This document shows positions 2,973-48,878 of a stretch of DNA of 64,000 nucleotides, in pieces. The stretch is from an uncultured Anaerolineales bacterium (GTDB lineage Bacteria > Chloroflexota > Anaerolineae > Epilineales > Epilineaceae). Every line of letters begins with the position of its first letter. The first letter of the stretch is position 1. The notes below the pieces were generated by a model. That model searched no databases. It saw only the letters and a list, made by a program, of their open reading frames with translations, and had not been told where the DNA came from. Made by a program: the position numbers and the translations under genes. The stretch is from the NCBI GenBank assembly GCA_964549495.1, contig CAZJWJ010000001.1, positions 3,020-67,019 of the forward strand. Reading direction: 5' to 3'.

Positions 2973-3680
2973 ATGAGCGGTCCCGCCTTGTTGGTGGCCA
3001 GCGACGAGCTCGAGCGCAGCCTCTTGACGCTGATCCTGCAGCGCCTGGGGCTCGACGCCCAGCTGGACGCGCAGGTCGATCACGCCCTGGATGCCTGGCC
3101 GGCCGGACCGGGCGAGCTGATCCTCTTGGCCCTCGCCGGCGCCGAGGCCAGCATCGAGGTCGTGCGCCGTTTTCGCGGCCTGGCGGCGGTACCCATCGTG
3201 ACCCTGGTCGACGATCTGGACGAGGCCGGGCACGTGGCCTTGCTCGAAGCAGGCGCGGACCTGGTGCTGGGCCGGCCCTACAGCAGCCGGCTGCTCTTCC
3301 ACCAGCTGGGCGCCTTGCTGCGTCGGGTCGGTGGAATGCCGGCCTTCAGCCTGCCCACGCTCAGCGTCGGCGGGCTGACCTTGGACCCGGCCGGCCGCCT
3401 CGTGCGCGTCAAGGGCGAGAAGGCCAAGCGCCTGACCCAGCTGGAGTTCCGCATGCTCTATACCCTGATGGTCCACCGCGGCCAGGTCCTGCCGGTCGAC
3501 CTCTTGGTCGAACAGGTCTGGGGCTACACCGGCGAGGGCAACCGCGAGCTCGTCCGCAGCCTGCTGGCGCGCCTGCGGGCCAAGATCGAGCCCGATCGCA
3601 GCCAGCCGCGCTACGTTCGCACCATCCCCGGCACCGGCTATACCTTTGGCGGCGACGAGTCGGAATCGATCCTGGAATGA
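2973..3680 (+). CDS. OmpR/PhoB-family winged-helix response regulator with a degenerate (Asp-less) receiver domain
   Basis: ATG at 2973 lies inside the long 1356..3680 ORF, whose upstream part is antisense to the beta-CASP gene. The C-terminal trans_reg_C pattern is present (LTQLEFRMLYTLMVHRGQVL...VRTIPGTGYTF). The receiver-like N-terminus has SDE instead of DDE, ELILLALAG instead of DLVLLDLxLP, and R instead of the conserved Lys. Confidence 0.8.
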   Translation: MSGPALLVASDELERSLLTLILQRLGLDAQLDAQVDHALDAWPAGPGELILLALAGAEASIEVVRRFRGLAAVPIVTLVDDLDEAGHVALLEAGADLVLGRPYSSRLLFHQLGALLRRVGGMPAFSLPTLSVGGLTLDPAGRLVRVKGEKAKRLTQLEFRMLYTLMVHRGQVLPVDLLVEQVWGYTGEGNRELVRSLLARLRAKIEPDRSQPRYVRTIPGTGYTFGGDESESILE

Positions 3681-3827
3681 GCCGCCATGACAAGCCTGTC
3701 ACGCAGGAGAGGAATTCTACCACGCCCTTGCAACGCTTATGTCACGCCAATTGCATCCCGAGTCCCGAAAATGATGCCGCGATCCAAGGTGGATCGCAGC
3801 CGCATCGAATCGCTGGATCTGTGAGGA

Positions 3828-4052
3828 ATGCAGATGACCGTAAAGGACAGCCGCACCGCCGCTCGTTGCCCCGACTGCGACGAGACCATCCGCCCGCGCA
3901 CCACGCCGCGCATCGGGCAGAAGATCACCTGCTCGACCTGCGACGCCGAGCTCGAGGTGGTCGGGATCAACCCGCTCGAGCTGGAGTGGGCCATCGACGA
4001 CGATTGGGACGACGACTTCGACGACGACGATGGGGACTGGGACGACGACTGA
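3828..4052 (+). CDS. LysW-like zinc-ribbon amino-group-carrier-type protein with an extended Asp/aromatic C-terminal tail
   Basis: 74 codons with strong GC3 bias. CPDC ... CSTCDAELEVVGINPLELEWA matches the LysW zinc-ribbon/ELEVVG-PLxLE pattern. The tail is IDDDWDDDFDDDDGDWDDD. GAGGAA at 3822-3827 favours the second ATG (3834) as the real start. Confidence 0.8.
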   Translation: MQMTVKDSRTAARCPDCDETIRPRTTPRIGQKITCSTCDAELEVVGINPLELEWAIDDDWDDDFDDDDGDWDDD

Positions 4053-4110
4053 TCCCGGCTGACCGGATCGATCCGCTCAACCGGTCGACCCCACGAGAAC
4101 CGAATCGACG

Positions 4111-4149
4111 ACGCGGGCTCGTCGCCAAGCCGAGCCCGTGTTGTATTGC
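4111..4149 (+). terminator. Candidate intrinsic terminator/attenuator between the carrier gene and the enzyme genes
   Basis: 11-bp stem (4111-4121 pairs with 4131-4141, one G-U), 9-nt loop, followed by TGTATTG (weak U-tract). Located in the 175-nt gap after the 74-codon gene. Confidence 0.4.
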
Positions 4150-4227: not shown

Positions 4228-5673
4228 ATGATGAGCCGCCCGTCCGCCCGATCGGTCGAACCGGGCAGTTTCGAGCCGCAGCTTCACTTCTATCCCCGCG
4301 CGCTCAACGCCCAGCTACACCCCTTGGTGCGAGCCTTCTTGTCCTTGGACAACGCGCGCATCGCGGTGCGCTACGCCCACCTGCACCCGGAGGTCGACCC
4401 GGAGGCCATCGGCCAGGCCCTGGCCGAGCGGCCCAAGCACTTCGTCTGGGGCGGGGCCGACCTCTTCCCGGTGGCCACGGGCCGCGGGCAGCGGCGCATG
4501 GTGGTCATCGAGACCAACAGCTCGCCCTCGGGTCAGAAGTCGATGCCGCTCTACGACGACACCCGGGAGCAGGGCGGCTACGCCCAGCTGGCGGCGAGGA
4601 CCTTCCTGCGCCTCTCGCGCCGGCGGGGCCTACCGGCCGGCGGCCTGGCCGTGCTCTACGACAAGAACGAGATGGAATGCGGCGGCTACGCGGCGGCCAT
4701 CGGCGAGGCGGCCGGCGAGCCGGTCTGGCTGGTGCCGATGCCGGAGGGCACGGAGGATCCGGCGGCCCGATTCGACGGATCGGGCATTCTGGAGGTGCGC
4801 GACGAGAAGGGTGCCTGGCAGCCCATCCGCGCCGCCATGCGCTACGTCACCCAACGGCCCTGGAACCGCATCCCGCCGGTCACGCGCACCGCGCTCTGCA
4901 ACCCGGTCCTGGTCTGCCTGGCGGGCGGCCGCAACAAAGCCCTGGCGGCCAAGGCCTACGACTTTCACAACGCCAGCCTCGAGCCGGCCGGCCTGCGCAT
5001 CCGCACCCCCGAGACCATCTGGGATGTGACGCGCCAAGAGGTTCCCTTGTGGGTGGCGCGCATGGGCGGCCGGGCGGTGGTCAAGGTGCCCTACGCCAAC
5101 GCAGGCCAGGGCATCTACACCATCACCAGCCCCGAGGAGCTGGAGGCCTTCATGCAGTCCTCGGCGCGCTACGATCGCTTCATCGTGCAGGCTCTGGTCG
5201 GTAACTCGGGCTGGAGCTCGCAGAGCGCGGCCGGCAGCCTGTATCACGTCGGCACCCTGCCCGACCGCCGCCTGCGCATCCACGTGGCCGACCTGCGCCT
5301 GATGGTGGGCGCGGACGAGTCGGGCTTCTACCCGCTAGCCCTCTACGCCCGCCGCGCCCGCCGGCCCCTGGCCGAACGCCTCGAGAGCGGCCGCTCCAGC
5401 TGGGACATGCTGGGCACCAACCTCTCCGTGCGCCGGCCGGACGGCAGCTGGGACACCGAGAGCGAGCGCCTCCTCATGGTCGACACCCGCGACTACAACC
5501 GCCTGGGCCTGGGCCTGGACGACCTGATCGAAGCCTATTTGCAGACGGTCCTGGCGGTGACGGCCATCGACCGCATGGCCCAACGCCTGGTCACCCAGCG
5601 TGGCGCCTTCCGCCACAAACTCTTCGCCTCGCTCACGCCCGACCCCGCGCTGGCTTCCGAGATCCTCCGATGA
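4228..5673 (+). CDS. Divergent ATP-grasp-like ligase, apparently with permuted motif order
   Basis: GAAGGAGG at 4218-4225 precedes ATGATG at 4228/4231. The ATP-grasp Lys-strand/Gly loop [16 protein letters not shown] and FIVQALV...ADLRLMV are present. An ExN-type motif, [11 protein letters not shown], lies about 190 residues N-terminal to them. The stop overlaps the next start (ATGA). Confidence 0.6.
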
Positions 5674-6794
5674 GCTCCAGCCCGGGATCGCGGGCACCGA
5701 GCGCGTCCGAGATCGCGCCGGCTCGGCGTGTCACGGCCATCGACCTGGCCGGGCCCCGTCCGGGCGCGCGTCAAGACCAGTGGGTCGAGCTGGGTCAGGA
5801 TGGACTCGGCGCGCCCGTCGCATTGCCGGTCGCCGTCCTGCGCGGCCAGAGCGATGGACCGGTCCTGGGCCTGACAGCCGCCCTGCACGGCGACGAGCTC
5901 AACGGCATCGCCGTCCTGCACCGGCTGCTGGCGCGGCTGGATCCGGAGCGCCTGCGCGGCACGATCGCGGCGGTGCTGGTGGCCAACCCACCGGCCTACC
6001 TGGCCGGCACGCGGCGTTACCCGGACCACTTCGACCTCAACCACCTCTTCCCGGGCGATCCGGCCGGCAAGGAGTCCGAGCAGTTCGTCCACCGCCTGCT
6101 CGAGCGGGTGATCGCGCCGGCCGAGATCCTGATCGACCTGCACACCGCCAGCCTCGACCGGGTCAACAGCTACTACGTCCGTGCCGACCTGCAGCGGGCC
6201 GAATCGGCGCGGCTGGCCTGGCGCCAACGGCCGCAGATCCTGCTGCATGCGCCGGCCGGCCCGACCAGCCTGCGCGGCCACGTGGAAGGCTTGGGCCGGC
6301 CGGCGATCACGCTGGAGATCGGCGACCCGCGGGCCTGGCAACCCCGCCTGGTCCAAGCGGCTACGGACGGACTGCTGGCCAACCTGATCGGCTTGGACAT
6401 GGTCGATCCCGACCTCCCCGCCGCGGTCGATGCACTCGAGCGCCTGGCCGCGACGCCCGAGCCGGCCGTCTGCACCCGCTCCAGCTGGATCCGCAGCGAG
6501 CGCGGCGGACTGGCCCGCGTCTATCCCGAACTGGCCCAGCGCCTGGAGTCCGGCCACCTGCTGGCCGAGCTGCGCGACGTCTTCGGCCGGCCGGTCGACC
6601 GCCTGCTGGCCCCCGAGGCCGGCGTCGTCATCGGCCGCGCGCATTCACCTATCCTGCGCTCGGGCGGCCGCGTGATCCATCTGGGGGTCGAGTCGGAGCC
6701 CGGCGAGCTGCCGGTGCTGGAGACGGTGGTCGCCGAGCTGGCGAACGCTGCGGCCACTGCGCCGTCCGACGAACTCGACGACGAGCGGGGCTGA
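5670..6794 (+). CDS. AstE/AspA-family (succinylglutamate desuccinylase/aspartoacylase, M14-like) zinc hydrolase, paralogue 1
   Basis: ATGA overlap with the upstream gene. Zinc-ligand motifs [10 protein letters not shown] and IDLHTAS. About 374 aa, typical for the family. Confidence 0.8.
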
Positions 6795-6799
6795 TCGCG

Positions 6800-7831
6800 A
6801 TGCGTCTGATCTTCCTGGTCAACCGGCTCGACGAGCTACAGCCCAAGATGACCACCGCCATGCTGATCGAGGCGGCAGCGCGCGAGGGGCTGGAGCCGCG
6901 GGTCGCGGCGGTCGACGGGCTGTGGCTGGACGCGGATGGGAGCATCTCGGCCAAGACCCACCGACCCTCCGGCCTTCCAGCGGCGCGGGACGACGACGGT
7001 GCGAGGGTGCAATGGCTGATGGCATTGGCCTCGAGCCAGCCGGAAGTTTGGGCACTCGAGCCCGGTGACCGCTTGTGGATTCGGACCAATCCAGCGCGGG
7101 ACGCGGCCCGTGCGGGAAGTCACCGCCTCGCCTTGGACTTGGCCGGCCTGGCCGCGGAGCGCGGCGTTGCGGTGGCCAACGACCCGCGGGGACTGACCCT
7201 GGCGGCCAGCAAACTCTACCTGGCAAGGCTGCCGGAGGCGACGGTGCCGCGGGGGATCGTGGCGGGCGAGGCGGAGCGGCTGCGCGAATTCGTCGCCGCG
7301 GCGGAGGGTCCGGTGGTGCTCAAGCCCCTGGCCGGCACCCGCGGCGCCGGCGTCTTCCGCGTCCAAGCCGGCGAGCCCAATCTGGGCAGCATCCTCGAAT
7401 CGCTGCTGGCCAGCGGGCCGGTGATGGCGCAGGATTGGCTGCCGGGTGCCGAGGAGGGAGATCTGCGCGTGCTCCTGCTCGACGGCCGGACCTTGACCGC
7501 GCCGGGCGGCTGGGCGGCGATCCGGCGCCGACCGGCGGCGGGCGATTTTCGCAGCAACCTGCACGCCGGCGGGCGGGCCGAGCCGGCCGAGCCGACGGCC
7601 GAGCAGCAGGCGACGCTGGCGGCCATCGCGCCGCGTCTGGTCGCCGACGGGCTGCGCCTGGTGGGCGTGGACTTGATCGGCCCGCGGGTGATCGAGCTCA
7701 ACGTCTTCAGCACCGGCGGGCTACGCGACGCCGAGCGCTTTGCCGCTGCCGACTTCAGCCGCATGGTGGTCCGGGGCCTGATCGAGGATCCGGGCTCGAG
7801 CGCAGGACCTTTGGAGGATGCAGAAGCATGA
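6800..7831 (+). CDS. Glutathione-synthetase (GshB)-like ATP-grasp ligase
   Basis: ATG at 6800, 5 nt after the previous stop. The GshB-type N-terminus is MRLIFLVNRLDELQPKMTTAMLIEAAAREG. ATP-grasp motifs are PVVLKPLAGTRGAGV, GDFRSNLHAGG and VIELNVFSTGG. Confidence 0.8.
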   Translation: MRLIFLVNRLDELQPKMTTAMLIEAAAREGLEPRVAAVDGLWLDADGSISAKTHRPSGLPAARDDDGARVQWLMALASSQPEVWALEPGDRLWIRTNPARDAARAGSHRLALDLAGLAAERGVAVANDPRGLTLAASKLYLARLPEATVPRGIVAGEAERLREFVAAAEGPVVLKPLAGTRGAGVFRVQAGEPNLGSILESLLASGPVMAQDWLPGAEEGDLRVLLLDGRTLTAPGGWAAIRRRPAAGDFRSNLHAGGRAEPAEPTAEQQATLAAIAPRLVADGLRLVGVDLIGPRVIELNVFSTGGLRDAERFAAADFSRMVVRGLIEDPGSSAGPLEDAEA

Positions 7832-9000
7832 AGATCGCCCTCTTGACGCTCAACGGCCGCAGCTACACCGCCAAGCGCCTGCGCGAGGCGGCCCGCGCGC
7901 GCGGGCACACGATCCGCGTGATGCGCACCGATCGCTTCAACATCTCGGTCGAGACCGGGCAGCCGGATCTCTACTACCGCGGCCGGCACGTGCTGCACGT
8001 GGACGCCGCCATCCCGCGCATCGGGGTCTCGATCACCCATTTCGGCACGGCGGTGGTGCGCCAGCTGGAGCAGATGGAGGTCTTCTGCCTCAACGGCTCG
8101 CTGGGCATCGCCAACGCGCGCGACAAGCTGCGCGGCCTGCAGATCCTGGCCCGGCACGACATCGGCATCCCGGCCACCAGCTTCGTGCGCGACAAGGCCG
8201 ACGTGCTGCCGGCCATCGGGCGGGTGGGCGGCGCGCCGGTGATCATCAAGCTGCTCGAGGGTACGCAGGGCTCGGGGGTGGTGCTGGCCGAGACGACCCA
8301 GATCGCCTCGGCCATCGTGCAGGCGCTGCACAGCGCGCAACAAAATGTGCTGGTGCAGAAGTTCGTGGCCGAGAGCCGCGGCCGCGACATCCGCGCCCTG
8401 GTGGTGGGCGACGAGGTGGTGGCGGCCATGCGCCGCGTGGCCCGCGAGGGCGAGTTCCGCAGCAACGTGCACCTGGGCGCCAGCACCGAGGCGGTCGATC
8501 TGGACCCCGAAGCGGCGCGGGTGGCGGTGCGAGCGGCGCAGATCATGGGCCTTCGGGTGGCCGGCGTGGACATGCTGGAGAGCGAGAGCGGGCCGCAGGT
8601 CATCGAGGTCAACTCCTCGCCGGGCCTGGAGGGCATCGAGGGCGCGACCGGGGTGGATGTGGCCGGCGCGATCGTCGAGCACGGCGAGGAGCACGTGCTC
8701 TTCCCGGATCTGGACATCCGCCAGCGCCTGACGGTCAGCCGCGGCTACGGGGTCTGTGAGCTGCCGGTGCCCAAGGGCTCGCCCTTGATCGGCCAGAGCA
8801 TCGAGGAAGGGCTGCGCGAGCAGGACATCGCGGCGCTCAGCCTGCACCGCGAGGGCACGGTGATCCCCAACCCGCGCGGTGGCCGCGTGCTGCAAAAGGG
8901 CGATCGGCTGCTCTGTTACGGCCGGCTGGAGACCATGCGCGGCCTCTTGCCGCCCAAGCCCAAGCGGCGTCGGCGGCGCAAGAGCCCCAAACGTGGCTGA
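7828..9000 (+). CDS. RimK/LysX-family ATP-grasp alpha-L-glutamate-type ligase fused to a TrkA-C (RCK_C)-like domain and a polybasic tail
   Basis: ATGA overlap at 7828. RimK-like motifs are MKIALLT..., PVIIKLLEGTQGSGVVLAE, GEFRSNVHLGA and VIEVNSSPGLEGIE. The C-terminal stretch is PLIGQSIEEGLREQDIAALSLHREGTVIPNPRGGRVLQKGDRLLCYG, followed by PPKPKRRRRRKSPKRG. Confidence 0.8.
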   Translation: MKIALLTLNGRSYTAKRLREAARARGHTIRVMRTDRFNISVETGQPDLYYRGRHVLHVDAAIPRIGVSITHFGTAVVRQLEQMEVFCLNGSLGIANARDKLRGLQILARHDIGIPATSFVRDKADVLPAIGRVGGAPVIIKLLEGTQGSGVVLAETTQIASAIVQALHSAQQNVLVQKFVAESRGRDIRALVVGDEVVAAMRRVAREGEFRSNVHLGASTEAVDLDPEAARVAVRAAQIMGLRVAGVDMLESESGPQVIEVNSSPGLEGIEGATGVDVAGAIVEHGEEHVLFPDLDIRQRLTVSRGYGVCELPVPKGSPLIGQSIEEGLREQDIAALSLHREGTVIPNPRGGRVLQKGDRLLCYGRLETMRGLLPPKPKRRRRRKSPKRG

Positions 9001-10081
9001 TTCCAAGGTCGGCGCCGGCCTGCTCGAATTGGCCGGCGAGTCGATCGCGTTGGGCGAGACCCGCGACCTGCTCTTGCCGATCAGCCAGCAGTACAGCGGC
9101 CAGCCGGTGGAGCTGCCCATCCGCGTCTGGCGCGCCGAGGCGCCGGGGCCGACGCTCCTGGTGACGGCGGCCATCCACGGCGACGAGCTCAACGGCACGG
9201 GCATCGTCCGGGCCCTGGCCAGCGACCCGCCCTTCGACTTGGTCCGCGGCAGCCTGGTGATGCTCCCGGTGGTCAACCTGCCGGCCTTCGAGCGCCATTC
9301 GCGCTACCTGCCCGACCGGCGCGACCTGAACCGCCAGTTCCCGGGCCGGGCCACCGGCAACTTGGCCAGCCGCTACGCGGCCACGCTCTTCGAGGCCCTG
9401 ATACCCATCTGCGACTACGGCATCGACCTGCATTCGGCGGCGATCCGGCGGACCAACTTTCCCAACCTGCGCGCCGACTTGAACGATGCCGGCACCCGCC
9501 GCTTGGCCCGCGCTTTCGGTTGCGAATTGACCATCCACGGCAAGGGGCCGCGCGGCTCCTTCCGCCGCGCCGCGACCAAGGCCGGCTGCCCGACCATCAT
9601 CCTGGAGGCCGGCGAGATCTGGAAGATCGAGCCCTCGGTGGTCGAGATCGGCCTGCGCGGCCTGCGCAACGTGGCCATCGCCCTGGGCATGGCCGAGGGC
9701 AAGCCCCGACTCCCGCCCTTCCAGGCCAACGTCCTGCGCAGCACCTGGCTGCGTGCCGAGGCCGGCGGCCTGCTCCAATTCCACGTCGCCCCCGGCGAGC
9801 CGGTCGACCGCCACCAGGCCCTGGCCACCGTCACCGACCTGCTCGGCCGCTCGCGCCACTTACTTCGAGCCCCTCGCGGCGGCCTGGTCCTGGGCTTGAC
9901 CACCATGCCGGCCGTCACCCCGGGCGAACCCATCTGCAATCTGGCCCATCCCCAGGGCGGCATGCGCCGGGTCCGCGCGGCGCTGGCGGGTGTGGCCGAC
10001 GACGCGCTGGCCGAGCGGCTGCGGCAGGACCTGGCGACCAACGTGGAGGTGCAGTCGCCGGGTGGGACGGCGGATCGCTAG
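8993..10081 (+). CDS. AstE/AspA-family (M14-like) zinc hydrolase, paralogue 2
   Basis: A GTG at 8993 overlaps the rimK-like stop (GTGGCTGA). Motifs AAIHGDELNG, DLNRQFPG and IDLHSAA are parallel to paralogue 1. The track ORF start at 8879 would overlap rimK-like by 120 nt, so I moved it. Confidence 0.75.
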   Translation: MADSKVGAGLLELAGESIALGETRDLLLPISQQYSGQPVELPIRVWRAEAPGPTLLVTAAIHGDELNGTGIVRALASDPPFDLVRGSLVMLPVVNLPAFERHSRYLPDRRDLNRQFPGRATGNLASRYAATLFEALIPICDYGIDLHSAAIRRTNFPNLRADLNDAGTRRLARAFGCELTIHGKGPRGSFRRAATKAGCPTIILEAGEIWKIEPSVVEIGLRGLRNVAIALGMAEGKPRLPPFQANVLRSTWLRAEAGGLLQFHVAPGEPVDRHQALATVTDLLGRSRHLLRAPRGGLVLGLTTMPAVTPGEPICNLAHPQGGMRRVRAALAGVADDALAERLRQDLATNVEVQSPGGTADR

Positions 10082-10108: not shown

Positions 10109-12475
10109 ATGAGCGAAAAGGACCCGAATCCCCGCTTCTTCGACGTCGTCGGCATGGATTGCCCCAGCTGCGCGCGCAACCTGGAGGCCGGCCTCGGCCG
10201 GCTGGATGGCGTGACCAGCTGCCGCGTGAACTACGGCACGCGCAAGATGGAGCTCGAGGGCGATGCAGCGCGCGAGGCCATCGCCGAACGGGTGAAGGCC
10301 CTGGGCTACGAGCTGGTCGAGCCGGGCGCGGGAGTGTCCAGCGCCAGCGCAGCCGCTCGCGGTGGTCTCTGGGCCTACTTGGCCTCGCGGCCCGAGGGCC
10401 GGCTGGCGGCAATCGGCTTACCGCTGATCGTTCCCGGCCTGCTGTTGGGCGAACTGACGGGACGCGAAGCACCGCTATGGGCCTCGGCGCTGGCCCTCCT
10501 TGCCGCGGTGCTCACCGGCGGACCGGTGGTTCGGGCCGGCTGGCGCAGCCTGCGCTTCGGGCGCGCCATCGACATGAGCGTGCTGATGAGCATCGCCGGC
10601 CTGGGCGCGGTGGCCATCGGAGCCTGGGTCGAGGCCGGCATGCTGATGACCCTCTTCGCCATCGGCGAGGCCCTCGAGGGTTACACGGCCGATCGGGCGC
10701 GGCAGGCGGTCCAATCGCTCTTGGAGGCGGCGCCCAGCGATGCCACGCGCATCCGGCGGGCCGGGCAGGGCGCGCTCGAATTGAGCATGATCGAGGAAGA
10801 CGTCGACATCGACGACTTGGTGCCGGGCGACGTGATCCTGGTGCGGCCCGGCGGGCGCATCCCGGTCGACGGGCGGATCCTGGCCGGCGCCTCGGCGGTC
10901 GACGAGGCCGCGCTGACCGGCGAGCCCTTGCCCGTGACCCGCGGCGAGGGCGATGCGCTGCGGGCCGGCACGGTCAACGGCGAAGGCGCGCTGGAGGTCG
11001 AGGTGCTGCGGCCGGCCTCCGAGAGCACGCTGGCCCGCATCGTGGCCATGGTCGAGCAGGCCCAGGCCCGCGAGGCGCCCAGCCAGCGCATCATCGACCG
11101 CTTCGCGGCCGTCTACACACCGGCCGTGGTGGTCCTGGCGGCGGCGACGGTGCTGCTGCCGCCGCTGGTCTTCGGCCAGCCCCTGCTCGATCCGCCCGAT
11201 GGCGGCCGCGGCTGGCTCTATCGCGGGCTGGCGCTCTTGGTCGTGGCCTGCCCCTGCGCGCTGGTCATCGGCGCGCCGGTGGCCACCATCAGCGCCATCG
11301 CCAACGCGGCGCGCCATGGCGTGCTCTTCAAGGGCGGCGCGGTGCTCGAGCGCTTGGCTGAGGTGCGCGCGCTGGCCTTCGACAAGACCGGCACGCTGAC
11401 GCTGGGCAAGCCGACCGTCGTCGCGCTGCAATCGGTCGGCTGCCCGGTCGGTGGTCACGGGTTGGTCGAGAACGGCGACTCGATGGCGGCGGATGGACGG
11501 TTCACGGTCGCTGATCGGATAGCGGCCGGTGGCCGGGTCGCCGACACGAGCGCCTCACCGGCCACCCTGGCGCTGGCCTGCGAGCCCTGCGACATGCTCT
11601 TGGGCATGGCCGGCGCCGTGGAGCGCCGCAGCCAGCATCCGGCCGCCCGGGCGGTGGTGGCCGAGGCGCATCGGCGCGGGGTCGAGGATCGCTTCGCGCC
11701 GGCCGAGTCGGTGGAGTCGCTGACCGGCATGGGGGTGCGCGGCGCGGTGGCCGGCCGGCCGGTGACGGTGGCCAGCCATCGCTACTTCGACCAGGGCCTG
11801 CCCCACGACGACGAGCATTGCGCGGCGGCCGATCGCGAGATCCAGGCCGGCAACTCGCCCATCCTGGTCAGCGCCGGCCAGACCTACCTGGGCCGCATCA
11901 CCATCGCCGACCGGGTGCGCGAGAGCAGCCGGCAGTCGCTGGATCGCCTGCGCGAGCTCGGCCTGGGCGAGCAGGTGATGCTCACCGGCGACGTCCGCCC
12001 GGGCGCCGAGCGCGTGGCCCGCACCGTCGGTCTGGACGCGGAGCGCGTGCGGGCCGAGCTCTTGCCGGAGGAGAAGCTGAAGGCCATCGACGACTTGCGC
12101 CGACAGCACGGCCCGGTGGCCATGGTCGGCGACGGCATGAACGACGCGCCGGCCCTGGCCGCGGCCGACGTCGGCATCGCGGTGGCCGGCCCCGAGGGCA
12201 CGGCACAGGCCATGGAGACCGCCGACATCACCCTGATGGCCGGCGACCTGCACCAGCTGCCCTTCGCCTTCCGGGTGGCCCGTGCCGGCCGCCGGGGCGT
12301 CATCTTCAACGTGGTGCTGGCCTTGGCGATCAAGTTTGCCTTCGTGCTCCTGGTGCTGGCCGGCCTGGGCACCATGTGGATGGCGGTGCTGGCCGACGTC
12401 GGCGCGACGGTGCTGGTGACCCTGCTGGGCATGCGATTGTTGCGCCGACCGCTGCCGGAGCCGGTGCCGGCATGA
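10109..12475 (+). CDS. P1B-type heavy-metal-translocating ATPase (Zn/Cd/Co/Pb-type, ZntA/CadA-like)
   Basis: N-terminal HMA motif [17 protein letters not shown] motif (VACPCALV), phosphorylation site DKTGTLT, and hinge [10 protein letters not shown]. 788 aa. Confidence 0.9.
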
Positions 12476-12507: not shown

Positions 12508-13311
12508 TCACTCCCCCTCGATCAGCTCCCGCAGCGCGGCCTCGAAGTTGCGGAAGTCACCGTGCTGGTGGATGCCCTCGGCCTCTTCCTCGCTGATCGG
12601 GCCGGCCACCACGCGCGACATGGCAAAGACCGTCTCTTCGCCCTCGGCCGTTAGGTCGTAGGTTGTATCCATGACCGTGGCCGGCCCGAGCTGGGTCCGC
12701 ATGGTCACCTTGGCCGGTGGGTCCCAGTGCGTCACGTGGCCGTAGTGATGACCGCTGCCGTCTCCCCAGTCCTCGTAGAGCGCGCCGCCGACCCGCTCCT
12801 CGAGCACCACGGCGCGGGTGCGCTCGCCACCGTAGGTCAGGCGGAACCATTCCTGACTGCGGCGCGTGAGCACCTCGAAGACGGTTTCGGGCGCGGCGCT
12901 GAAGCGCAGCTCGTTCTCGATTCGGACGACGCGGTAGGTATCTCGATCCGACATGCTGTTCCCTTGCTCCTGCGTGGATTCCTGCTCGGAGGACGCCTCG
13001 GCCAGGCGCCCGATGGATAGGGCCTCGCCGGCCGCATCGCCGGCCAGCCGCGAGACCCAGCGCTCGTAGACGCGCTGAACCGGCGCCGCGTTGAGGTGGT
13101 TGAAGCGCTCACGACCCTGCCGGCGCACCAGGATCAGCCCCGCATCCGTCAGCACGCCCAGGTGCTGCATCACCGCAAAGCGGCTCAGCTCGGGCTGTGC
13201 CTCGGCCAGCTCGCCGGTCGTCCGCGGGCCGTCGCGCAGGGCATCCAGCAGCTGGCGTCGGGTGGGATTGGCCAGGGCCTTCCAGATGGCCGCATCATCG
13301 TTCGCGTTCAT
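12508..13311 (-). CDS. ArsR/SmtB-family HTH regulator fused to a C-terminal SRPBCC/AHSA1-like domain
   Basis: The ArsR pattern is present (WKALANPTRRQLLDALRDGPRTTGELAE...SRFAVMQHLGVLTDAGLILVRRQGRERF). About 150 aa of C-terminal SRPBCC-like sequence follow. I place the start at ATG 13311; the track start at 13329 is a GTG lying inside the palindrome. Confidence 0.75.
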   Translation of the reverse strand: MNANDDAAIWKALANPTRRQLLDALRDGPRTTGELAEAQPELSRFAVMQHLGVLTDAGLILVRRQGRERFNHLNAAPVQRVYERWVSRLAGDAAGEALSIGRLAEASSEQESTQEQGNSMSDRDTYRVVRIENELRFSAAPETVFEVLTRRSQEWFRLTYGGERTRAVVLEERVGGALYEDWGDGSGHHYGHVTHWDPPAKVTMRTQLGPATVMDTTYDLTAEGEETVFAMSRVVAGPISEEEAEGIHQHGDFRNFEAALRELIEGE

Positions 13312-13331
13312 ATGTGATAAGAATATCACAT
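13312..13331. promoter_or_regulatory. Candidate ArsR-type operator: ATGTGATA-AGAA-TATCACAT palindrome
   Basis: Perfect 8-bp arms with a 4-bp spacer, AT-rich in a GC-rich genome. It abuts the ATG of the ArsR-family gene and overlaps its putative -10. Confidence 0.5.
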
Positions 13332-15094: not shown

Positions 15095-15379
15095 CCGGGC
15101 TTTGGCCCGCGCTAGCGACGGTCAAGCGTCAGCCGATCGTCGGGCTCGGGCCTTGCCAGGCCGGCGGGCATCGGTTAAACTCGCGGGGTCTCGTGGCCCG
15201 TCCCGGCTTGATGCGAGGCGAATTTGGTGATTTGGTCGCATCCTTTGGTCATCGTGGCGCGTCGGAAGGACTGACACGGCTGTTCCCTCCGTAAGGTCTT
15301 GGCGCGCCAACCGGTCGAGCCGACGCAGGTCGATCGTCAACATCATCCTGGTCATCGCAGCACGGAAAGGTCCCGACCG

Positions 15380-16576
15380 ATGCTGGAAACCCGCCTCCGC
15401 GAAGCCTCCAGCGGCTTGGTGGACGCCGTCGTCGACTTCTGTCAACGGCTCATCCGAACGCACAGTCCCTCCGGGCAGGAGGGCGATATCGCCGCGCTGG
15501 TGATGGACGAGATGCGGCGGCTGGGCTACGACCGGGTCGATACGGATGCGGCCGGCAACGTCATCGGGATGGTACGTGGAGGCACGGGCCCCAGCTTGAT
15601 GCTCAACACCCACCTGGATCATGTCGATGCCGGCGACCCGGAGCGATGGGCCTCGCCGCCCTTCGAGGGCGCCGTGATCGACGACGCGGTCTGGGGGCGG
15701 GGCGCGATGGACATCAAGGGACCCCTGGCCTGCCAGGTCTACGCGCCGGCCGTCCTGCGCGTGGCCGGCATCACGCCGCCTGGCGACCTCTACGTCACCG
15801 CCACGGTCATGGAAGAGGTCGGCGGCATCGGCGCCGCGCTGCTCTCCCGCAGCCTGAAGCCCGATCTGGCCGTGGTCGGCGAGGCCAGCGATTGCCAGGT
15901 GGCCCGAGGCCATCGCGGGCGGGTCGAGGTCGAGGTTCGATTCACCGGCCGCGGCGGGCATGCCAGCATGCCGCACCTGCTGGCCAACCCGCATTACTCG
16001 GCCGCCCGGCTGCTGTCAGCCGTCGAGGACTTGGAGATGGCCGAGAGCGAGGGCCTCGGAGCGGCCACCGTGTCGCCGACGCTCTACGTCAGCGATCAGA
16101 AGAGCCGCAACGTCACCCCCGAGCAGGTGACGGTCACGCTCGACTGGCGCATGGTGCCCGAGGAGGGCCCCAAGGCGGTGCTCGAGCGGGTGGCGGCCTT
16201 GGCCGAAGAAGCCTGCGGGGAGGGCGTCAGCGCCGAAGCGCGCATCCCCGGCACCGATTGGCGCACCTACACCGGGCTCGTTCACCGCATGCCCGCCGTC
16301 TTCCCGGCCTTCGAGCTGGCCGAAGACGACACCCTGGTCCAGGGCGCGCGGGGGATCCTGGAGTCGGTTTACGAAGATCCTGTCCCTGTCCGCATTTGGC
16401 GCTTTGCGACCGATGGCGGACACTTCATGTCGGCCGGCATCCCCACCGTGGGATTCGGACCCGGCGACGACAGCCTTGCGCACACCACCGAGGAGCGGAT
16501 CGGCCTCGATGAGTTGGCGCGCGGGCTGCTCGGCAACGCCGCGCTCTGTGCGCGGCTCGGGGAGGTAGCCATTTGA
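15380..16576 (+). CDS. M20-family metallopeptidase/deacylase (ArgE/DapE/YgeY-like)
   Basis: The start is ATG 15380, after GGAAAGG. Motifs LMLNTHLDHVD and WGRGAMDIKG, with a C-terminal ATDGG...GFGPG...AHTTEE pattern. Confidence 0.8.
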   Translation: MLETRLREASSGLVDAVVDFCQRLIRTHSPSGQEGDIAALVMDEMRRLGYDRVDTDAAGNVIGMVRGGTGPSLMLNTHLDHVDAGDPERWASPPFEGAVIDDAVWGRGAMDIKGPLACQVYAPAVLRVAGITPPGDLYVTATVMEEVGGIGAALLSRSLKPDLAVVGEASDCQVARGHRGRVEVEVRFTGRGGHASMPHLLANPHYSAARLLSAVEDLEMAESEGLGAATVSPTLYVSDQKSRNVTPEQVTVTLDWRMVPEEGPKAVLERVAALAEEACGEGVSAEARIPGTDWRTYTGLVHRMPAVFPAFELAEDDTLVQGARGILESVYEDPVPVRIWRFATDGGHFMSAGIPTVGFGPGDDSLAHTTEERIGLDELARGLLGNAALCARLGEVAI

Positions 16577-45630: not shown

Positions 45631-45791
45631 TCCCCGATCGGACGGCCAGGGTCTTCCTTGCCAGCGCCGGTCGACCCCGCGGCGGTCGAGATCGCGGACC
45701 CGACGCCCTTTCGGACTCGCCGGCAGGCTGCTTTGCCCTACAATGACCGGCTGCATCGTCCCGATCGCCACGCAACCAGGACCCGAAGACC

Positions 45792-48878
<3,087 letters not shown>

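Follow-up and report, generated by a model that had tools for sequence, protein, structure and literature searches.

A LysW-like zinc ribbon with a conserved acidic and aromatic tail, encoded between an OmpR-type regulator and a ligase/amidohydrolase operon in an Anaerolineales bacterium

We analyzed a 64,000-nucleotide stretch of DNA from an uncultured Anaerolineales bacterium (assembly GCA_964549495.1, contig CAZJWJ010000001.1; hereafter the window), in which a small gene, gene A, encodes a LysW-like zinc ribbon that ends in a tail of aspartate and aromatic residues. A regulator gene, here named TRC, precedes gene A, and genes B to F follow it. As an earlier note made from the letters of this DNA had suspected, several ligases lie next door, namely three ATP-grasp enzymes (B, D and E), plus two zinc amidohydrolases. 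We found that the tail is conserved in a large, uncharacterized family of such proteins, mainly from Chloroflexota. The gene A protein probably represents a new LysW-fold acidic adaptor, with another tail architecture, other partners and another role than LysW. We propose, at somewhat less than an even chance, that its polyanionic tail is a substrate or a handle for C-terminal remodeling by ligases and peptidases.

The gene A protein is a LysW homologue but probably not a LysW-type carrier

Translated from 3828 to 4052 on the forward strand, gene A reads MQMTVKDSRTAARCPDCDETIRPRTTPRIGQKITCSTCDAELEVVGINPLELEWAIDDDWDDDFDDDDGDWDDD followed by a stop codon. A Shine-Dalgarno sequence, GAGGA, directly adjoins the ATG at 3828, and 6 nt separate it from a second ATG at 3834; because of this spacing, and because the public database entry (P0001) is the 72-aa form, the start is probably 3834. 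The window has a GC content of 70%, and in the frame plot the gene A frame has 0.91 GC at third codon positions and 0.45 at second positions, which is a coding signature. A window-wide scan of the open reading frames (ORFs) found an acidic C-terminus in gene A alone.

The Pfam model Zn_ribbon_LysW (PF21344) matched the gene A protein with 36.4 bits against a gathering score of 27, in line with the LysW-like core described in the earlier note. Thermus thermophilus LysW (3wwl) was matched with an E value of 6e-9, the W60 of the tail being aligned with the W of the EDWGE motif, and LysW 5k2m with 1.4e-4. In an AlphaFold2 model based on a 42-sequence alignment, core residues 12-54 form three beta strands with a predicted local distance difference test score (pLDDT) of 84-89. 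C14, C17, C35/C38, P49 and W54 show little or no variation in this alignment. Judged by its sequence, the gene A protein is a true LysW homologue.

It scored 39.0 against TIGR01206, the lysW equivalog model, whose cut-off is 53.2, and 18.2 against NF041070 (archaeal LysW/ArgW), whose cut-off is 75. The substrate of LysW is attached at the C-terminal Glu (PMC12998189). In the EDWGE-type motif, it is the gamma-carboxylate of this Glu that holds the substrate. Neither an EDWGE-type motif nor a terminal Glu is present in the gene A protein, which ends in ...GDWDDD. Domain and equivalog searches of the neighbors found no LysX, LysZ, LysY, LysJ or LysK gene at the window locus, nor are these genes among the recurrent neighbor clusters of 119 genome loci among the matches listed. 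Because of the low equivalog score, the absence of EDWGE and terminal Glu, and the lack of LysX/Z/Y/J/K nearby, the gene A protein is probably not a canonical LysW or other amino-group carrier protein (AmCP), and a carrier role in the lysine pathway is unlikely. The same findings speak against the carrier-family membership assumed in the earlier note, which had also allowed for placement in a standard lysine or arginine operon; no such placement was seen at any locus among the matches listed. A peptidase gene of the M20/M25/M40 family, which includes LysK and ArgE, was found at 15275-16576 (+), 11 kb 3' of gene A and beyond the ATPase and ArsR genes, and appears to be unlinked to it.

The gene A protein shares its zinc-ribbon fold and detectable homology with the LysW/ArgW AmCPs of alpha-aminoadipate (AAA) lysine, arginine and DADH-type secondary metabolism. 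Both have an acidic C-terminal extension, with a Trp of the gene A tail aligned to that of EDWGE, and both have ATP-grasp ligases and amidohydrolases encoded nearby; the acidic surface presumably serves electrostatic docking in A too. Unlike the EDWGE-containing extension of LysW, which has about 10 residues, the tail of A has about 20 and is nearly pure Asp. The absence of a terminal Glu, the score below the lysW cut-off and the missing LysX/Z/Y/J/K partners likewise set A apart, as do a family-specific PLEL(D/E)W(A/P) motif in the core and the usual pairing of the family with an OmpR-type pseudo-receiver regulator.

The tail is conserved in composition and in the dispersal of its aromatic residues

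The last 19 residues of the gene A protein comprise 14 Asp and no Glu, and the final residue is Asp. The description in the earlier note of an Asp-based, Asp-terminated tail much longer than EDWGE thus holds. The aromatic residues W54, W60, F64 and W71 are separated by gaps of 6, 4 and 7. In the AlphaFold2 model the tail is a low-confidence coil (pLDDT 58-64), which suggests that it is disordered.

A word-indexed search returned three non-self relatives only, each with a poly-Asp/aromatic tail. The core of P0002 is 78% identical to that of A, and its tail reads ...IDDDYDDDDDDDWDDDSD; P0003 and P0004, 57 and 47% identical to A, have the tail ...DEWDDDWDDDDGDDDDLDDDWDDDDWDDDDW. The terminal residues across these close homologues are D, D, W and W, in that the 78%-identical orthologues end in DDD and DSD, respectively, and the sister clade ends in W.

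We then widened the sample. When a profile was run against 1.84 billion representatives, 1470 matches were obtained at E <= 1e-3, ordinary LysW included. Among the best 150 of the 1470, acidic tails (at least 8 residues, at least 40% Asp/Glu) were present in 82 of 92 single-domain proteins. The same best 150 hold a tandem sister class with two to three copies of the zinc ribbon, many with strongly basic (K/R-rich) C-terminal tails (P0125, P0128, P0130, P0134 and about 55 others).

We defined the family by PLEL(D/E)W after the second CxxC together with a tail of at least 12 residues, at least 45% of them Asp/Glu, with dispersed W/Y/F. A degenerate DNA pattern for C-x2-C-x3-[LF]-x-[VIL]-[VI]-x3-P-[LIV]-E-[LF]-[DEN]-W matched the window once, with 0 matches expected, and the matching protein has both the motif and the tail. 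The pattern recovered at least 119 genome and at least 120 metagenome stretches (at least 239 loci), nearly all of which encode acidic-tailed LysW-like proteins. These stretches are at most 8 kb long and not centered on the match, with crude gene calls; the sample is biased, being mostly from Chloroflexota, so the percentages derived from it are rough.

One cultured organism, Litorilinea aerophila, carries a family member. In public pipelines, the label given to many members is 'lysine biosynthesis protein LysW' or 'alpha-aminoadipate carrier protein'. The searchable literature yielded no description of the acidic-tailed family or of the TRC-A pairing, although an earlier account may exist in the amidoligase survey of Iyer et al. 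2009, which possibly covers the GshB-like/DUF1704/FGase neighborhood.

Tail statistics draw on 243 acidic tails, no two of them identical (proteins P0125-P0274; loci L011-L252). The sequences are related, so that p-values are nominal. Their median length is 22 residues (range 12-99), with a composition of 41% D, 25.5% E and 15.5% Y+W+F; the Asp/Glu ratio varies, and the net acidic character is kept. Each tail has 1 to 11 aromatic residues (median 4). Adjacent aromatics were observed 43 times, against 139 +/- 10 in within-tail shuffles, a three-fold depletion. Gaps of 4-7 residues between aromatics were enriched, and the coefficient of variation of the gaps was below that of all 500 shuffles.

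The C-terminal end is also far from random. W, Y, F or L is the final residue in 120 of the 243 tails (49%, against 19% expected from composition), and the penultimate residue is D or E in 84%. A (D/E)-(W/Y/F/L) ending is shared by about half of the tails, and a third have D/E as the final residue. The final residue is D in 52 tails, Y in 49, W in 35, E in 30, L in 19 and F in 17, with 18 different residues in all. Such a dichotomy between a D/E-aromatic and a D/E ending is of the kind expected if terminal residues are added or removed. Acid-terminated tails are rarer beside Ddl-like/AblA genes (7/51) than at TRC-only loci (33/74; nominal p 4e-4, the sequences not being independent). This was the only signal of a link between tail features and enzyme context, an idea that was otherwise rejected; no relation to ligase number was found.

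These results indicate that the constraint on the tail is aromatic dispersal, not a fixed repeat, and that length, aromatic number and terminal residue are free. The tail appears to be selected for composition (about two-thirds Asp/Glu, evenly placed W/Y/F, and often a (D/E)-aromatic end) and not for exact sequence. The regular aromatic spacing claimed in the earlier note therefore stands as an even dispersal across the family and falls as a repeat. Its terminal Asp as attachment point is not supported, given the variable last residue of the 243 tails, and neither is its one DDD(W/F) module per ligase, given the presence of 1-11 aromatics whatever the context. The tail might, as the note also envisaged, have been random in orthologues; instead, acidic and aromatic tails are conserved.

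A regulator with a degenerate receiver is the commonest neighbor of gene A

The N-terminal half of TRC scored only 12.4 bits against Response_reg (E 0.18), and the full-length protein fell far below the cut-offs of the MtrA, PhoB and OmpR models. Its acceptor position reads ...ELILLALAGAEAS, in which the phospho-acceptor Asp is replaced, and the conserved receiver Lys is not kept in TRC relatives. On these residues, the receiver is predicted to be non-phosphorylatable, and a TRC without the acceptor Asp needs an input other than phosphorylation. TRC is 77% identical to the regulator of locus L253 and 45% identical to the regulators beside family members in L012 and L001. The TRC gene lies inside a 774-codon open frame.

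Among the matches listed, a same-strand TRC homologue was found within 700 nt upstream of A in 32 of the 97 genome loci whose flank was long enough, and anywhere in the stretch in 43 of 119; 45 of 120 metagenome loci, many on very short contigs, have one adjoining A. TRC is thus the commonest and most conserved neighbor of the A family (about 40% of the 239 loci among the matches listed), and the pairing is also seen in L253 and L258. The next gene after most TRC-A pairs is on the other strand, which makes the pair a self-contained cassette.

Just past the TRC stop codon, a perfect palindrome, TGACAAGCCTGTCA, lies within a block of 17 bases that the window and L253 share without change, in a TRC-A spacer (about 150 nt) that otherwise diverges. 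It may be an operator and is put forward as a candidate. A second conserved spacer element, the hairpin GCCGCGATCCAAGGTGGATCGCAGC, was noted at 3776-3800, about 30 nt before gene A.

Other recurrent neighbors of the family are large sensor kinases, GAF-kinase/LuxR pairs, sigma-70, GreA, LysE and IMPACT/YigZ. GreA lies 3' of the LysW-like gene in at least four loci (L020, L079, L087, L128), and large sensor histidine kinases in at least six (L258; L023, L024, L035, L054, L080). The GreA, kinase and sigma-70 neighbors suggest a transcription or signaling flavor for the family.

At about 17-20% of the 239 loci among the matches listed, A is flanked by a lysine 2,3-aminomutase gene that passes the AblA equivalog cut-off and by a Ddl-like ATP-grasp gene, the latter often as a fusion with a SAM methyltransferase. 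This Ddl-like ligase, present at about one in five loci among the matches listed, is single and differs from the ligases of the window and of the sister clade. The cluster of LysW-like, AblA and Ddl-like genes recurs in L012, L030, L038, L053, L076, L077, L090, L106, L121, L141, L152, L155 and others, mostly in Anaerolineae and Chloroflexia, sometimes with LysE and TRC upstream. Some of the LysW-like proteins encoded there lack an acidic tail (AFxEPLP...). The cluster may represent a beta-lysine-related pathway linked to a LysW homologue.

Ligase and hydrolase genes adjoin gene A in one sub-clade

The order TRC, A, B recurs in L253, where A is 78% identical to that of the window and the following gene matches B over its first 28 residues. 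In L001-L006, which represent the sister clade (P0003), gene A is followed by FGase, MATCAP/QEGLA and GshB-like genes, with a gap of 43-79 nt and without a hairpin. The sister-clade MATCAP scored 316 bits against PF08014 and lies above the TIGR02421 cut-off. An aminotransferase gene lies upstream in L001. In L254-L256 (P0004), a biotin-carboxylase-like ATP-grasp gene and an NTN hydrolase gene are found just upstream of CorA-A.

Two different modules of GshB-like ligase plus carboxypeptidase-type hydrolase therefore lie beside a single A sub-clade (57-78% identical), which is unlikely to be a coincidence.

CorA is directly upstream of A in all P0003/P0004 loci (L001-L006, L254-L256) and also in L128. 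Metal-transport genes (CorA; the P-type ATPase and ArsR genes of the window) thus occur near the A sub-clade and are missing at almost every other family locus among the matches listed, either by coincidence or through a cation link of the sub-clade.

The locus downstream of gene A encodes three ATP-grasp ligases and two zinc amidohydrolases

The features of the locus are collected in Table 1.

Table 1. Features of the gene A locus and its surroundings in the window
Feature	Position	Strand	Remarks
TRC, OmpR-family winged-helix regulator with degenerate receiver	2973..3680	+	Trans_reg_C 66.8 bits; 147-153 nt upstream of A
Palindrome TGACAAGCCTGTCA, candidate operator	3688..3701	+	TRC-A intergenic, just past the TRC stop codon; perfect palindrome
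Gene A, LysW-like zinc ribbon with poly-Asp/aromatic tail	3834..4052	+	Alternative start 3828
Zinc-ribbon core, residues 12-55	3861..3992	+	CPDC...CSTC and PLELEWA motif; PF21344 coverage
Tail IDDDWDDDFDDDDGDWDDD, residues 56-74, predicted to be disordered	3993..4049	+
GC-rich hairpin, then UUGUAUUG	4108..4144	+	Between A and B; probable terminator/attenuator
Gene B, unannotated 480-aa protein, predicted ATP-grasp amidoligase of glutathionylspermidine-synthetase / eukaryotic glutathione-synthetase-like fold	4231..5673	+
Gene C, AstE/AspA-family zinc amidohydrolase, M14 carboxypeptidase relative	5670..6794	+	AstE_AspA_cat 115 bits
Gene D, GshB-like ATP-grasp ligase, PRK12458 type	6800..7831	+	GSH-S_ATP 143 bits, GSH-S_N 28 bits
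Gene E, RimK alpha-L-glutamate ligase with C-terminal TrkA_C	7828..9000	+	RimK 203, Rimk_N 107, TrkA_C 33 bits
Gene F, second AstE/AspA-family zinc amidohydrolase	8993..10081	+	AstE_AspA_cat 124 bits; start uncertain, 8993 or 8879
Heavy-metal P-type ATPase	10109-12475		Follows the B-F operon
Divergent ArsR gene	12508-13329		After the P-type ATPase

The hairpin between A and B folds with -27 kcal/mol (z -3.95), and none of 200 shuffles folds as well. Its equivalent in L253 (1147-1177) has -36.7 kcal/mol (z -4.7), with conserved stems and different loops. Its weak U-tract kept the A-B hairpin from being called in a strict consensus terminator scan. From its predicted folding, we consider it probably a terminator or attenuator.

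Gene B had no match in Pfam or NCBIfam, nor did a profile search of PDB sequences give one. Its AlphaFold2 model (pLDDT 81, predicted template modeling score 0.88) matched 2io7 (E 4e-8) and 2hgs (E 2e-7) in Foldseek, then Ddl, RimK and LysX. Since the model thus matches glutathionylspermidine synthetase (GspS), eukaryotic glutathione synthetase (GSS) and further ATP-grasp enzymes, gene B is predicted to encode an ATP-grasp amidoligase. The idea that it is a divergent MATCAP/DUF1704 protein was rejected, as it has no similarity to the MATCAP of L001 and its model is of the GspS/eukaryotic GSS type.

The gene B family has more than 3241 homologues (62-83% identity), everywhere annotated as hypothetical, in Chloroflexota, Myxococcota, Cyanobacteria, Proteobacteria, Rhodothermales and others. 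As a rule, its members have a GshB-like ligase and an AstE/AspA hydrolase encoded alongside (L009, L130, L132); the homologue in L010 adjoins CapB/CapC, RLAN-ATP-grasp and GCS2 ligase genes. In L130 (a Caldilineae metagenome-assembled genome), the GshB-like gene at 4860-5932 is called as two ORFs of 131 and 233 aa, for which a frameshift, an assembly error or a pseudogene is possible.

The nearest solved structure to the gene C protein is the N-acetyl-DABA deacetylase DoeB (E 1.6e-17). Its HGDE and DxH metal motifs align with those of DoeB, and the HxxE...H zinc motifs are kept. Gene D scored 241 against NF009110, under the cut-off of 408, and shares 33% identity with the GshB-like gene found after A in L001. 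The gene E protein matched Pseudomonas RimK (7qyr) with an E value of 3.8e-90, E. coli RimK with 1e-85 and LysX with 1e-17; it scored 317 against NF007764, just under the cut-off of 331. By these matches, gene E appears to encode a true RimK, not LysX. The frame plot of gene F switches at about 8925-9000.

The window holds no gene for S6 and no other acidic-tailed ORF; the classical RimK substrate S6 was therefore rejected as a candidate in cis. PADLOC gave no match for TRC, A or B-F, and an anti-phage defense system was likewise rejected as the role of the locus. Elsewhere in the window, the alpha and beta subunits of glycyl-tRNA synthetase are fused in one 1043-aa ORF (45747-48878, +).

Discussion

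To our knowledge, the only role of LysW is that of an acidic partner in ATP-grasp-initiated pathways. AmCPs dock through a negative surface on positive patches near the active sites of their enzymes, with the substrate at the C-terminus (PMC11726168). An acidic protein C-terminus that is served by a ligase and a trimming peptidase is known from RimK/RimB and S6 (PMC7343187, PMC11957791), and the same holds for the acidic, aromatic-ended tails of tubulin, with TTL/TTLL as ligases and MATCAP/TMCP and CCPs as trimming enzymes (PMC10499314). From the homology, the tail statistics, the gene order and the enzyme identities, we infer that the gene A protein may be covalently modified, and the acting enzymes and their chemistry could be as follows. 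The tail would be an enlarged and flexible version of the electrostatic handle of LysW that threads into positively charged active-site grooves of the partner enzymes. The ATP-grasp ligases (RimK, D and B) would extend the tail with residues, at its free alpha-carboxylate or at carboxylates of its side chains, and the AstE/AspA zinc amidohydrolases would take such residues off again, a task that would fall to FGase and a MATCAP-type carboxypeptidase in the sister clade. As the terminal residue is not conserved, a dedicated side chain at the terminus is a less likely site of any ligation than the alpha-carboxylate or side chains within the tail. Gene A would be expressed from the two-gene cassette with TRC, and the hairpin may set the ratio of A to the enzymes. 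The LysW homology, the two juxtapositions with enzyme genes, the true RimK encoded by E, the kept zinc site in C and the disordered tail together suggest remodeling of this kind.

Several observations weigh against it. B, AstE/AspA, GshB-like, RimK, FGase and MATCAP genes were found in 0 of 239 family loci among the matches listed, so the enzyme context of the window is rare within the family. Adjacency of A and B was seen in two closely related organisms only. The closest B-F operon, in L130 (B 83% identical), directly follows jag and lacks TRC-A; a neighboring A is thus not required for B-F. In the further B modules of L008-L010 and L132, both A and acidic-tailed ORFs of any kind are missing from the surroundings, and an acidic-tailed substrate gene as a general companion of B modules was rejected, since none was found beside them. 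The strong A-B hairpin means that A and B may not be co-transcribed. The commonest partner of A is a regulator and not a ligase, and S6, encoded outside the window, may still be the substrate of the gene E RimK.

These points leave room for a reading that we regard as rather unlikely, if a serious contender, in which A works with TRC, or with RNA polymerase, as a regulatory partner, B-F being incidental or a regulated target. The zinc ribbon would dock on TRC, and the tail would act as a mimic of DNA or a phosphoryl group, or as an activation-domain-like input that replaces phosphorylation. A same-strand TRC adjoins A in about 40% of the loci among the matches listed, plus the window, L253 and L258, mostly as a self-contained pair, and about 60% lack TRC in the stretch sampled; simple cis-regulation of A would likewise place a regulator beside the gene. 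The receiver without acceptor Asp or kept Lys, the recurrent histidine kinase, LuxR-type response regulator, sigma-70 and GreA neighbors, the A-B hairpin and the conserved palindrome in the TRC-A spacer all fit a regulatory role, and dispersed aromatics in an acidic disordered tail are what typifies acidic activation domains. OmpR-type regulators are not known to have a partner of this sort, however, and the two GshB-like/peptidase juxtapositions are left unexplained, as are the 17-20% Ddl-like loci among the matches listed. Taken together, the juxtapositions in the sub-clade favor remodeling of the tail, whereas the family-wide neighborhood favors a regulatory partner. The two could be combined in a bacterial 'tail code', in which a tail state written by RimK, GshB-like and B ligases (Ddl-like in other clades) and erased by AstE/AspA, FGase and MATCAP would control the phosphorylation-blind TRC in place of receiver phosphorylation; we give this combination little credence at present.

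That A is a true amino-group carrier seems distinctly unlikely. LysW holds its substrate on the C-terminal Glu, and here an amine would sit on the beta- or alpha-carboxylate of the terminal Asp, be processed while tethered and be freed by AstE/AspA, the DDD(W/F) units serving as ligase modules. The LysW homology agrees with this, as do the enzyme types, since carriers of this sort are loaded and unloaded by enzymes such as ATP-grasp ligases and N-acyl-amino-acid amidohydrolases (AstE/AspA, DoeB-like, FGase); an aminotransferase gene lies upstream in L001 and the AblA aminomutase gene beside A in Anaerolineae. But the locus has no set of kinase, reductase and aminotransferase comparable to LysZ/Y/J, the TIGR01206 score is under the cut-off, and E is RimK, not LysX. 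The terminal residue is also unconserved (DDD vs DSD, W in the sister clade, any of 18 family-wide), the aromatic 'modules' (1-11) do not track ligase number, and B-F occurs without A. Very unlikely, in our view, is a low-affinity, high-capacity binder or buffer of divalent cations, like the tail of calsequestrin, tied to metal transporters: the P-type ATPase (10109-12475) and ArsR genes of the window and CorA upstream of A in the P0003/P0004 loci and L128 point that way, but hardly any other family locus among the matches listed has a transporter gene, and the dispersed aromatics, the aromatic C-termini, the conserved PLELDWA surface motif and the link to TRC and ligases would stay unexplained. 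Least credible of all is a meaningless low-complexity tail arisen by GAC repeat slippage in a high-GC genome. A tail length of 12-99 residues and coding DNA rich in GAC/GAT repeats would suit slippage, yet acidic tails are found in 82 of 92 single-domain top matches and at most of the 239 loci among the matches listed, across GC contents, with strongly non-random aromatic spacing and terminal residues; these conservation statistics already contradict it.

Returning to remodeling of the tail, one of the closest known systems is RimK/RimB acting on S6 (RpsF), whose C-terminus is polyglutamylated. The operon next to A encodes a true RimK, and an acidic C-terminus with ATP-grasp extension and a dedicated trimming peptidase provides the paradigm. 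The C-terminus that RimK accepts in S6 is Glu-Glu; the tail of A is acidic and ends in Asp-Asp-Asp. Among the differences, the candidate substrate A is a LysW-like zinc ribbon whose tail is genome-encoded and Asp-based; the hydrolases are AstE/AspA zinc enzymes and not the retropepsin RimB, and two further ATP-grasp ligases are present. RimK and A do not obligatorily co-occur, as the L130 operon is without A and RimK was found at 0 of 239 loci among the matches listed.

The tail code of tubulin (TTL/TTLL, CCP M14, MATCAP/TMCP) also rests on a disordered acidic tail with aromatics, often with an acidic-acidic-aromatic end. The gene A locus likewise has ATP-grasp ligases and M14-related AstE/AspA nearby, and a genuine MATCAP is encoded in the sister clade. 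This is an analogy of enzyme types only; A is unrelated to tubulin, and the window has no MATCAP gene. A further likeness is to the tails of SSB, of phage T7 gp2.5 and gp4 and of eukaryotic acidic activation domains, which are disordered Asp/Glu segments with spaced aromatics or hydrophobics and frequently an aromatic C-terminus, and which dock to basic or hydrophobic grooves. There is no homology, and those tails are on DNA-binding or activator proteins, unlike that of A, which is on a small zinc ribbon encoded beside a regulator gene.

As a label for this family, LysW is probably mistaken in hundreds of Chloroflexota genes, and it leads the AAA lysine pathway to be predicted too often. If the tail is an enzyme substrate, it would be the second bacterial example, after RimK and S6, of the remodeling of a protein C-terminal tail, and the widespread bacterial MATCAP/QEGLA and PRK12458 'glutathione synthetase' families would gain a testable protein substrate. 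A tail code, if true, would be a prokaryotic counterpart, and possibly an evolutionary precursor, of tubulin-tail enzymology.

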